NCBI GenBank assembly: GCA_963752155.1
Contig: CAVVXH010000009.1
Coordinates: 1 to 26,578 of the forward strand
Length of the DNA: 26,578 nucleotides
Origin: an uncultured Parachlamydiaceae bacterium
Lineage (GTDB): Bacteria > Chlamydiota > Chlamydiia > Chlamydiales > Parachlamydiaceae
Direction of reading: 5' to 3'
Below the pieces are notes generated by a model that saw only the letters and a program-made list of their open reading frames with translations, searched no databases and had not been told where the DNA came from. This document shows, in pieces, positions 15,136 to 26,093 of this stretch (its first letter is position 1; the number at the start of each line of letters is the position of its first letter). A program made the position numbers and the translations under genes.

Positions 15136-15414
15136 CGATAAAAACGATAAAAACGATAAGAACGATAAGAACGATAAAAACGATAAAAACGATAAAAACG
15201 ATAAAAACGATAAGAACGATAAAAACGATAAGAACGATAAAAACGATAAAAACGATAAGAACGATAAGAACGATAAAAACGATAAGAACGATAAAAACGA
15301 TAAAAACGATAAAAACGATAAAAACGATAAAAACGATAAAAACGATAAAAACGATAAGAACGATAAAAACGATAAGAACGATAAGAACGATAAAAACTAT
15401 AAAAACGAGAAGAA
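15136..15414 (+). repeat. 9-bp tandem repeat CGATAA(A/G)AA, 29 canonical plus 2 degenerate units
   Basis: Counted directly; the canonical units differ only at position 7 (A or G). Confidence 0.97.
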
Positions 15415-15529
15415 GTCTGGTTGTAAGAAAAACGTGGAATTAAAATGTTGTGAAATTTTGGGAGCAAACATCAAGCGCAATTATTCAACTATTTAAAAGT
15501 TTCTCAACTTCAAAACAATGAGGACTTCC

Positions 15530-15637
15530 TTCTCATCGTTCTTATCGTTCTTATCGTTCTTATCGTTTTTATCGTTTTTATCATTCTTATCGTTCTTATC
15601 GTTCTTATCGTTTTTATCGTTTTTATCGTTTTTATCG
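15530..15637 (-). repeat. Inverted array of the same 9-bp unit, TT(C/T)TTATCG x12
   Basis: Reverse complement of the 15136-15414 unit; 2 units carry one extra substitution. Confidence 0.95.
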
Positions 15638-15711
15638 TCTCATCGTTTGCATCATTGATTACGTCTACATAAAAAAACATATCCAGACAACATCGTGAAT
15701 AAGTGTTAATT

Positions 15712-16783: not shown

Positions 16784-18315
16784 ATGAGTACAAAAGAATC
16801 AACAATGCCTGAATTTACCGGATGGAGGGCAGCATTGTGGCCGATACATCGGTTTGAGCTTAAAAAGTTTCTTCCATTATCGTTCATTATGTTTTGTTTA
16901 CTATTTAATTATACGATTTTGCGAGATACAAAGGATACTTTGGTAGTGACTTCAGCAGGAGCAGGAGCGATTACATTTTTGAAATTATATTGTGTAACTC
17001 CAGTCGCAATTCTATTTGTGATTATTTATGCTAAGTTAACAAATATATTGAATCGAGAAACTATTTTTTATGCAGTAGTTGCTCCATTCTTGATATTTTT
17101 TGGTCTCTTTGGATTTTTGATCTATCCAAATTTAGATCTTTTGCATCCTTCAGTTGAGTCTATAAACGCTTTACATGCAAGTTATCCACGTTTAAGTGGA
17201 TTTATTGATCTATATGCTTATTGGGCTTATTCAGTGTTTTATGTATTAGCTGAAATTTGGGGGAGTGCCATGATTGCTCTAATGTTTTGGCAATTTGCTA
17301 ACTACGTAGTACGCATGAGAGAGTCTAAAAGATTTTATGGATTATTTGCAGTAGTGGGTAACGTAGCCTTGATTTTTTCTGGACAAGTTGTAGGTTTTTC
17401 TTCCGGATATATTCAAAATTTCTTTGCAACTAAAGAAGAAGCGTGGGAAGTGTCACTTTATTTATTAATGGGTGCTGTCGTATTTTTTGGGTTAATTTCT
17501 ATGGTCATCTATCGCTGGATGCATACTAATGTACTGGTCGATAAACTCTATTTTGATCAGGATGAGCACATTCAACCAAAGAAAAAGAAAAAAAAGCCCT
17601 CTTTATTGGAAAGTATAAAGGTGATTTTATGTTCACCGGAGCTAGGTCTAATTGCGGTTTTGATTATGGCCTATGGTGTAGCAATCAATCTTGTTGAAGT
17701 TCAGTGGAAACATCAGCTGGGACTTTGGTATGGAAGTGATAAAGGGGGTTTCAATTGGTTCATGGGCAATATTCTACAACCACAGGTGTTGCCACTATAT
17801 TGTTTGGACTTTTTGCAGGATCAAATATTCTGCGCAGTGTAAGCTGGTTTAAAGCTGCTATCATTACTCCATTAGTGATTACAGTGGGTGGAATAGTATT
17901 TTTCCTTTTTGTATTCTCTGAAGCATTTATGGAGTTCATTTTAAAGAATTTGGCCTCTGTGAGTGCTGTAACTGCGGCGACTTTTTTAGGGGCTTTTATT
18001 TTGATTGCAAGCAAAGCAATCAAGTATATACTTTTTGATGCTACCAAAGAGATGGCTTATATCCCTCTTGACGAAGAATTAAAGTCAAAGGGAAAAGCTG
18101 CCGTAGACGTCATTGGTGGCCGTGTAGGCAAGGCCGGAGGAGCTTTTACTCAAAGCACTCTTTTAATTCTTTTTGCAACTAAAGATGTAGTAGCGATTGC
18201 TCCTCAGGCTTTCATAGTTTTTGCTGTGGTCTGCAGTCTTTGGATGATTTCTGTTAAAGTCTTGGCACGCAAGGTTGACGAAGCTGTTGAACCTCTTTCT
18301 GTAGAATGCTTATAG
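16784..18315 (+). pseudogene. TLC/NTT family nucleotide (ATP/ADP) translocase with a single-base frameshift
   Basis: ELKKFLP, NYTILRDTKDTLVV, AEIWGS, FWQFAN, NLVEVQWK, KYILFDATKEMAYIPLD, KGKAAVDV, GKAGG; adding one G at 17764-17766 gives FMGQYSTTTG and a 510-aa protein. Confidence 0.93.
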
Positions 18316-24757: not shown

Positions 24758-25015
24758 TAGCAAAATGTAAAATCTTCTAGTCATTTTTTTGTGTGTAATA
24801 TTTTTGTTTAGGATGAGTTAAAATATTTGGATATAGTCTTTTTAATAGACCTTGATCACACATAGGATTTATGTAGTGATTTCTGAGAGAATCTTCTTTT
24901 CTATTAAGTAATTGAGATATTTCTGATAGAGAGAGCGCTTGTATTTGACAAAGGTCGAGAATAAGCTGTCTTACCAATTCCTTAGAGCTTTTCTTTGATC
25001 CAGTAATCTTTTTTG

Positions 25016-25160
25016 GGCTATGTTCACCTGTACACGAGAAACTTTCGCTCAATTATTCCTCCTCTGTGTTCTCTGTGATCTCTGTGGTAAAAAAAAATCT
25101 ACCACAGAGATCACAGAGAACACAGAGGAGGAATAATTGAGCGAAGAAGTGAACAAGGCT
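25016..25160 (+). mobile_element. 145-bp palindromic MITE, copy 1
   Basis: Ends GGCTATGTTCAC...GTGAACAAGGCT; 8-bp TSD CTTTTTTG at 25008-25015 and 25161-25168; perfect 46-bp stem 25044-25089 / 25100-25145. Confidence 0.95.
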
Positions 25161-25188
25161 CTTTTTTGCTATTTTCTGTAATTGTGTG

Positions 25189-25343
25189 AAACGTTCGGAG
25201 CTTTCATCCAAATGTTCGGAGCTCAAATGTTCGGAGTTTTCACTCAAATGTTCGAAGTTCTCGCTCAAATGTTCGGAGCTCTCACTCAAATGTTCGAAGC
25301 TCTCACTCAAATGTTCGAAGTTCTCATTCAAATGTTCGGAGCT
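25189..25343 (-). repeat. 21-bp coding tandem repeat (about 8 units, EHLSE(N/S)(F/S))
   Basis: Core AAATGTTCG(G/A)AG at 25189 (variant), 25210, 25225, 25246, 25267, 25288, 25309, 25330; one unit shortened to 15 bp, frame preserved. Confidence 0.93.
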
Positions 25344-25356
25344 TTTTTCTAATGGG

Positions 25357-25923
25357 TCATTTAGGCCTCTTTAAATTAGAAATTTTATTTTTGATTGCCT
25401 CAAGAGCCTCGGGAAAAGTTTTCTTATAGTAGTCACCGCCGAAATGTCCTTGGTCTGTAGATTCATGGTAATCAGAATTAAGCTTATCGTGGACATAGCG
25501 TGCTTCAGAAATAGGAATCCATGGGTCATTAAGTCCTGCGAATTGTATAATCCATTGTTGGTTTTTCTTGATTGCATTCCAATCCCAAGGAGTATCAAAA
25601 TAACCACTTACTTTTTCATTTTCTATCCCTAAATCGGTATGGTAGGCTCCAACTATGACAGATCCTAAAATCCGATTTTCTTCTGCATATCTCATCGCAG
25701 CAATGGCTCCCGAGGAATGGCCTATGATAATGGTGTTTTCATCCGGCTTTAAAGTGTCTTTTAAAAATGGGATCCAATAAGATGCTCTTGCTAAGTCGGC
25801 ATCGGGAAATTGAGATGCATCAACATTAATTCCCAATTTTTCTAATTCTAACTTTAGATAGGGGAACCAATTGTCTGTTGGCTTTCCTCCGCCATTTCCA
25901 TGGATTAAAATCGCTCTGATCAT
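25357..25923 (-). CDS. RBBP9/YdeN family alpha/beta hydrolase
   Basis: LIHGNGG, nucleophile GHSSG, DPWIP, GHF; AGGAG RBS 6 nt upstream. Confidence 0.93.
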   Translation of the reverse strand: MIRAILIHGNGGGKPTDNWFPYLKLELEKLGINVDASQFPDADLARASYWIPFLKDTLKPDENTIIIGHSSGAIAAMRYAEENRILGSVIVGAYHTDLGIENEKVSGYFDTPWDWNAIKKNQQWIIQFAGLNDPWIPISEARYVHDKLNSDYHESTDQGHFGGDYYKKTFPEALEAIKNKISNLKRPK

Positions 25924-25937
25924 CGTTTACTCCTGTC

Positions 25938-26080
25938 AGCCTTGTTCACTTCTTCGCTCAGTTATTTCTCCTCTGTGTTCTCTGTGATCTCTGTGGTAGG
26001 TTTTTTTACCACAGAGATCACAGAGAACACAGAGGAGAAATAACTGAGCGAAAGTTTCTCGTGTACAGGTGAACATAGCC
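25938..26080 (-). mobile_element. 143-bp palindromic MITE, copy 2 (inverted relative to copy 1)
   Basis: Ends AGCCTTGTTCAC...GTGAACATAGCC; 8-bp TSD CTCCTGTC at 25930-25937 and 26081-26088; perfect 46-bp stem 25953-25998 / 26007-26052. Confidence 0.95.
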
Positions 26081-26093
26081 CTCCTGTCCATTT

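Follow-up and report, generated by a model that had tools for sequence, protein, structure and literature searches.

Correia/NEMIS and RUP are bacterial MITEs, and in REPIN/RAYT systems and REP-type hairpins gene-less hairpins are akin to arms that flank a small enzyme gene. Among the insertion sequences (IS), IS903 generates 9-bp target-site duplications, and IS1595 and ISL3 generate 8-bp ones. The prokaryotic Mutator-like transposases have been arranged as p-MULT 1–5 (IS256, ISH6, ISLre2 and ISKra4/ISAzba1/ISMich2); the portion of that source used here gives as criteria a helical insert of 99–138 residues, a C/D(2)H motif 11–19 residues after the second D and 8–9-bp repeats (PMC3942029). Template switching at inverted repeats, as laid out in the sections of two studies used here, yields homogenised arms, inverted spacers and multiple compensatory changes (PMC8604942, PMC8794818).

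The locus described here lies in a window of 26,578 nucleotides from an uncultured Parachlamydiaceae bacterium (contig C9 of genome G000, an assembly of 3.13 Mb in 22 contigs that is 80% complete). Its element shares with the bacterial MITEs, as portrayed in the consulted parts of a census (PMC11602168), a short, non-coding, intergenic and multi-copy nature, apparently IS-derived ends, a fixed-length duplication and the lack of a transposase of its own; those parts of the census contain neither ‘Chlamyd’ nor ‘hairpin’. It departs from them in that the partner IS is in none of the family profiles tested and in that the interior appears not to be IS sequence but a repeat captured from another element. 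The element recalls REPIN/RAYT in that its core is a gene-less hairpin akin to the arms of GxxExxY genes, but this hairpin is carried inside DDE-type ends with a duplication. With template-switched inverted repeats, so far as the consulted sections describe them, it shares arm homogenisation, spacer inversion and simultaneous compensatory changes; unlike those cases, it consists of paralogous mobile copies in which one-sided and two-sided states coexist (PMC8604942, PMC8794818).

We consider it probable (roughly 0.78) that this is a non-autonomous MITE moved in trans by a DUF6399 DDE transposase, with a captured GxxExxY-type hairpin whose arms are copied onto each other by template switching. 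This reading builds on the copies and their duplications, the homology of the ends, the partner's own duplications, a predicted fold and the pattern of mutations.

Two inverted elements in the window

The initial annotation had described two inverted copies, each with its own 8-bp duplication and a perfect 46-bp stem. Both are present as described (Table 1) and exceed chance expectation: the chance of an exact 8-mer repeat across 145 bp is 0.0004 at a random site, and the probability of four arm substitutions landing as two mirrored pairs is 0.0004 per copy. Between the copies, the loop and two mirrored pairs differ (25961/26044 and 25967/26038); the terminal 12-mers of the element match at 9 of 12 positions. 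Copy 1 is identical in sequence to a copy on another contig (G000:C10:196844-196988).

Table 1. Features of the two MITE copies and their surroundings (window coordinates)
Feature	Position	Strand	Description
MITE copy 1	25016..25160	+	145 bp; majority arm sequence of the family
Copy 1 left target-site duplication	25008..25015	+	CTTTTTTG
Copy 1 right target-site duplication	25161..25168	+	CTTTTTTG
Copy 1 left end, putatively DUF6399-IS-derived	25016..25051	+	terminal 12-mer, spacer and subterminal motif at 25043-25051
Copy 1 perfect stem	25044..25145	.	46 bp; 10-nt loop at 25090-25099
Copy 1 stem arms	25044-25089 / 25100-25145		paired without mismatch
Copy 1 core hairpin	25062..25127	.	CACAGAG-type 9-nt units; also found in relatives, as stand-alone hairpins and in the arms of GxxExxY genes
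Copy 1 right end, putatively DUF6399-IS-derived	25135..25160	-	terminal 12-mer and subterminal motif, 3 nt between
MITE copy 2	25938..26080	-	143 bp; sole copy among 25 with mirrored arm substitutions
Copy 2 stem arms	25953-25998 / 26007-26052		perfect 46-bp stem
Copy 2 target-site duplication, hydrolase side	25930..25937	-	GACAGGAG
Copy 2 target-site duplication, far side	26081..26088	-	GACAGGAG
Serine hydrolase gene, between copies 1 and 2	25357..25923	-	188 aa; Pfam PF06821; outside the element

To judge from its position, copy 2 may lie within the 5' leader of the hydrolase gene. A Shine-Dalgarno-like AGGAG is found inside the duplication on the hydrolase side, 6 nt before the hydrolase ATG, and the insertion of copy 2 doubled this gene's Shine-Dalgarno-like sequence (25924-25937). 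On the other side of the gene, a tandem 21-bp repeat of ~7 units (25189-25352) begins 28 bp from copy 1; it has a 76% match in the related genome G006. Elsewhere in the window, an ATP/ADP translocase (TLC) gene at 16784-18315 is split into two overlapping ORFs, by a frameshift or an assembly indel; its presence is suggestive of an environmental Chlamydiota.

A dispersed family of short, non-coding elements

The genome contains ~30 copies of what is a non-autonomous element, dispersed and independently inserted. Its 28-nt left end is present at 27 sites, at 25 of them together with a right end; these 25 full-length copies measure 125-151 bp and are accompanied by ~7 partial ones, with right ends alone at five loci. 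An exact 8-bp duplication flanks 18 of the 25 full copies, three more have one with a single mismatch and in four it is poor, whereas an exact 9-bp duplication is found in none. All 25 lie outside called ORFs of at least 90 aa, in a genome that is ~82% coding by these crude calls, and no ORF was found inside the element. With its terminal inverted repeats, short length, lack of coding capacity and fixed-length duplication at dispersed sites, the element is a real MITE. A promoter scan returned 6 sites against 4.6 expected, and comparison of the element with plasmids and phages gave no match. The neighbouring genes are convergent at 7, divergent at 7 and co-oriented at 10 of the 24 copies with both neighbours called, without a clear bias to any arrangement; a terminator-like role was discarded, as copies are not clearly over-represented between convergent genes.

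An orthologous empty site was sought without success. The copy at C10:428070 interrupts a host repeat, other members of which carry the duplicated 8-mer once, and this interrupted repeat is, on sequence comparison, a paralogous stand-in for an empty site. The hydrolase orthologue of G001, with no MITE in the 200 nt upstream, was dropped as a candidate empty site since its context differs and does not align. A low-share DNA sequencing run yielded 12 contigs, most of which covered the hairpin core; none contained a joint. The genome also holds a second palindromic repeat family with GC-rich variable loops (49 matches, e.g., C1:63188 and C10:427893), and two MITE copies sit within members of it.

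The element had been proposed to be active. The exact duplications at 18 of 25 copies and the two identical copies speak for recent activity; because the assembly holds only decayed remnants of a partner, we restrict the claim to recent, not present, movement.

The ends correspond to a DUF6399 insertion sequence

The ends begin with GGC, as do those of the IS903 group, and the initial annotation had placed them near the IS5/IS903-group ends. This assignment does not hold: the duplication is of 8 bp and never the 9 bp of IS903, and the partner IS described below has no DDE_Tnp_1 or DDE_Tnp_1_5 match. More generally, mobilisation by a known family with similar ends, be it the IS5/IS903 group, IS1595 or ISL3, appears highly improbable. 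The 8-bp duplications of the latter two and the presence of DDE_Tnp_ISL3 on 21% of one neighbour cluster in the Atlas, and of Transposase_mut on 49% of another, are in keeping with it; against it, the genome contains no PF13737, PF12762 or PF01610 match, its best PF01609 match lies in a high-GC, contamination-like stretch, and the ISs that possess both ends match DUF6399 only. IS1595 was rejected for want of a DDE_Tnp_IS1595 match in the genome or the partner, and ISL3 for want of a DDE_Tnp_ISL3 match on two partners or in the genome; a distant kinship of the partner to ISL3 is possible. There are two weaker PF01609 matches in the genome (L017 and L018). The high-GC stretch, with its DDE_Tnp_1 transposase, forms the start of a 40%-GC contig (G000:C5:1-3500) and looks like contamination or a chimeric join, and its transposase was set aside as a mobiliser for its location; the start of C12 is also of high GC.

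A pattern of shared left-end bases retrieved 20 loci in species genomes (18 of them in three Chlamydiota records, the other two probably by chance) and 7 in metagenomes, while the exact left-end pattern had no occurrence in metagenome contigs. With two mismatches allowed, the left end was recovered in one of 72 other genomes of the family (G041), with different interiors behind it. Among the 7 metagenome loci, L073 and L077 are complete elements of 1,886-1,887 bp with a single ORF of 566 and 564 aa, respectively, in which DUF6399 is the sole Pfam match at E 0.1 (E 3e-35 and 2e-33); NCBIfam yielded nothing for these proteins at E 0.1. Their left-end match follows from the construction of the pattern, and the independent test is a search with the protein, which gave matches in 13 of 400 genomes of the phylum. 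It recovered L081, a 50% identical relative with the same long left and short right ends and an exact 8-bp duplication, and L085, with unequal ends as in the MITE. The genome G183 harbours three identical 1,966-bp IS copies, each with its own 8-bp duplication. The MITE shares its ends with autonomous elements (L073, L077, L081 and L085). Across 12 full or near-full DUF6399 ISs, four, the three G183 copies among them, have exact 8-bp duplications and eight have no target duplication.

The left end of copy 1 is identical to those of L073, L077 and L081 at 27/36, 30/37 and 27/37 positions, and its right end to those of L081 and L085 at 22/26 and 21/26; the identity of the MITE ends to the closest IS ends is only 62-85%. 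The IS ends are bipartite, with a terminal 12-mer and a subterminal motif that are separated by ~15 nt at the left end and by 3 nt at the right, and the outer 8-11 pairs of the MITE stem are these subterminal motifs. The hairpin is therefore off-centre because it inherits an end architecture that is bipartite and unequal. From this correspondence we infer that the DUF6399 protein is the enzyme that mobilises the MITE.

Decayed N- and C-terminal remnants of a DUF6399 IS persist in the genome, and no intact cognate transposase was found in its assembly (80% complete). The DUF6399 genes of G002 and G041 belong to other subgroups, with no matching ends near them. Directly after one N-terminal remnant (L079, G000:C6:54269-54620) comes a near-perfect palindrome of 89 bp, whose ends are similar and which is present in a single copy and without a duplication. 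Two further loci (L154 and L155; G000:C10:106404-106563 and C15:153939-154098) belong to another MITE type, 160 bp long, whose ends are DUF6399-like and whose 8-bp duplications are exact; in G303, an element like these adjoins the L081 IS.

In plasmid records the protein is labelled only ‘DUF6399 domain-containing protein’. DUF6399 goes unmentioned in the non-subscription literature searched, and searches of that literature for chlamydial MITEs and unclassified IS families returned nothing on this element. Going by Pfam, NCBIfam and this literature, we provisionally call the IS unnamed.

A predicted RNase H fold for the DUF6399 protein

A structure model computed from 97 of 120 listed homologues (610 were found) has a mean pLDDT of 87.6 and displays an RNase H core with a long helical insert. 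D166, D221 and E473 are invariant in the 97 sequences. Foldseek placed Hermes first (E 4.6e-5) and ISCth4 next (E 2e-4) among 14 hits at E 0.001 or better. A wider structure search recovered integrase cores (Z 14.7, rmsd 2.9 over 142 residues), Hermes (Z 12.0, rmsd 7.3 over 324 residues) and ISCth4 (Z 11.3, rmsd 4.2 over 243 residues). The A1 profile retrieved nothing meaningful from PDB sequences. The predicted fold suggests that the DUF6399 protein is a probable DDE transposase of the Mutator/hAT type.

Set against the p-MULT descriptions in the consulted portion of the source (PMC3942029), the protein has in common with them the RNase H DDE core, the helical insert, the 8-bp duplications and the structural match to ISCth4. 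It differs in its 565-aa length and in the lack of a Transposase_mut match. As to the C/D(2)H motif, P0001 has a D-x-x-H (D240/H243, 19 residues after the second D) and H243 is invariant, but the 97-sequence consensus has E at the first position. Moreover, ~250 residues separate D221 from E473, the second D and the E, against an insert of 99-138 residues in p-MULT, and because the insert length does not fit we do not file DUF6399 under p-MULT, as delimited in that portion of the source. The hAT transposase Hermes scores as well as ISCth4.

The core hairpin resembles the arms of GxxExxY cassettes

Element positions ~47-112 match 22 of 40 relatives, and among the matches listed outside G000 none reaches the element termini. 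In G006, the hairpin stands without IS ends in 8 of 8 stretches, and this genome has no match to DUF6399. The CACAGAG units bracket GxxExxY (PDDEXK_3) genes or fragments at L129, L134 and L007, and follow such a gene at L135; among the 11 viewed of 12 GxxExxY loci, other genes have related CGCAAAG, CACAAAG or CGCAGAG arms. The two arms of the MITE face outward, like the outer ends of a cassette joined together. In other Chlamydiota the same shell recurs around hairpins of the CACAGAG, CGCAGAG or ACAGGAT type, and exact 8-bp duplications flank 8 of the 9 MITEs seen outside this genome. Judged by sequence, the element would be a composite of IS-derived ends and a captured CACAGAG hairpin, the capture presumably having been an event of its own. 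As G041, of another genus, shares shell, core and loop with the G000 MITE, the composite is either old or transferred.

The reverse arrangement, in which the GxxExxY nuclease system spreads the element via its hairpin and the IS ends are mere passengers, might be entertained in view of the 14 GxxExxY matches and well over 100 related CACAAAG-type arrays in the genome. Yet the limits of the mobile unit coincide exactly with the IS ends and a DUF6399-type 8-bp duplication, all 60 of the 60 CACAGAG arrays in G000 lie within MITE copies, and the arms of the resident GxxExxY genes examined are of other types; we accordingly give this arrangement very little credence.

Several related structures were observed. 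Arrays of the CACAAAG/CGCAAAG type number 136 in G000 and form long hairpins (e.g., C4:110628 and C6:157328), some joined to GxxExxY genes. L007 (G035:C44) comprises three tandem ~350-bp units, each a C-terminal GxxExxY fragment between CACAGAG arms. The window itself contains, at 15136-15638, 9-bp tandem arrays that form a large inverted pair, with ~110 nt of unique core between them; their unit flanks a GxxExxY gene at L019, before and after, and the arrays are probably the expanded arms of a decayed cassette.

Arm changes among the copies

The initial annotation offered two accounts of the mirrored changes in the stem: a hairpin selected as structured RNA, or one homogenised by arm-to-arm copying. 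Compensation across the family, as a sign of selected RNA, is not supported by the copies. The stem is perfect in 10 of 25, and in the other 15 every break is one-sided, so that arm changes in the further copies are mostly uncompensated. Substitutions were counted on the outer 25 of the 46 pairs, the inner 21 being excluded as the aligner misplaces 9-nt deletions there; this gave two two-sided cells, both in copy 2, and seven one-sided ones. Pairwise comparison added 13 one-sided indels in 11 copies, with an ambiguous difference in C11:297148 uncounted. One of the changes of copy 2 recurs in C2:251296 on a single arm, and the two mirrored changes, at sites 6 nt apart, may represent a single event. 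Some of the one-sided changes could be assembly errors.

Other states bear on copying between arms. The loop is exactly inverted in 2 of 25 full and two partial copies, and the copy at C11:246535-246654 has two right ends and 20 mirrored flank bases and forms a full palindrome. In 12 stretches of G041, with arm states compared irrespective of the direction of change, the left arm is block-mismatched to the right in four, an exact match in two and a near match in three; L109 and L112 of this genome exhibit further mirrored single changes, and the change of L112 is present in a one-sided state in L115. These loop inversions, the palindromic copy and the G041 arm states bear out homogenisation by arm-to-arm copying.

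Selection for a structured RNA (an RNase III substrate, a stabiliser or an antisense RNA), with mirrored changes that are truly compensatory, would accommodate the ten stems that are still perfect, the largely maintained pairing between genera despite several differences and the location of copy 2 just upstream of a start codon. Both changes of copy 2 can also pass via G-U pairs, the intermediate with one change on a single arm being that of C2:251296. Hand-counted substitution events number 9 in 92 nt of the arms versus 10 in 43 nt of the ends (one-sided p = 0.048), a deficit predicted by arm copying and equally by purifying selection. A shuffle control gave 7/500, but this value rests on one event, both double changes being in one sequence, and covariation from several independent events is absent over the outer 25 pairs of the 25 copies. 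The one-sided breaks and 13 indels, and loops that are inverted or deleted, run counter to a conserved RNA; the wobble pairs left by five one-sided transitions are divided between the strands (2 and 3), and two changes pair on neither strand. Nor does the orientation of gene pairs favour it, and no Rfam family was matched at gathering score (57 sub-threshold rows, mostly microRNA hairpins). Overall, we regard RNA selection as quite unlikely, and prefer template switching because of the loop inversions, the full-palindrome copy and the block-converted arms of G041.

Discussion

In the mechanism that we propose, the MITE would be mobilised in trans by a DDE transposase from a 1.9-kb IS family whose sole annotation is DUF6399. 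The MITE would retain ~36 bp of the IS left end and ~26 bp of its right end, and between them a hairpin captured from GxxExxY nuclease cassettes and made of their CACAGAG-type arms. The 8-bp duplications would arise as the element inserts into intergenic, AT-rich DNA, after which the copies would decay by one-sided mutation and slippage of 9-nt units. Occasional template switching in replication, the putative mechanism, or else inter-arm exchange, would copy one arm onto the other and thereby give rise to mirrored double changes, inverted loops and converted arms.

A bolder version, which we consider unlikely, is that DUF6399 marks a widespread and hitherto undescribed IS family, intermediate between Mutator/IS256 and hAT, the empty shells of which repeatedly and non-randomly recruit GxxExxY arms as functional cargo. 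If this were true, the hairpin could hold the ends together for transposition, or the GxxExxY nuclease could cut it as a cruciform, with the ensuing repair copying arm onto arm; one element would then couple two selfish systems.

On the more restrained reading of a DUF6399-mobilised composite MITE, a probable function, that of a DDE transposase with 8-bp duplications and defined ends, can be given to a Pfam family that lacked one and has at least 610 relatives in a single search, and the 145-bp MITE offers a natural substrate for testing this enzyme. The locus joins DUF6399 ends and a GxxExxY hairpin in one element, along with side-by-side snapshots of arm copying, and would show how a MITE can be assembled by combining one element's ends with another's repeats. 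It also counsels caution: mirrored stem changes, usually taken as proof of a functional RNA, here accompany inverted loops and converted arms in a selfish DNA hairpin.
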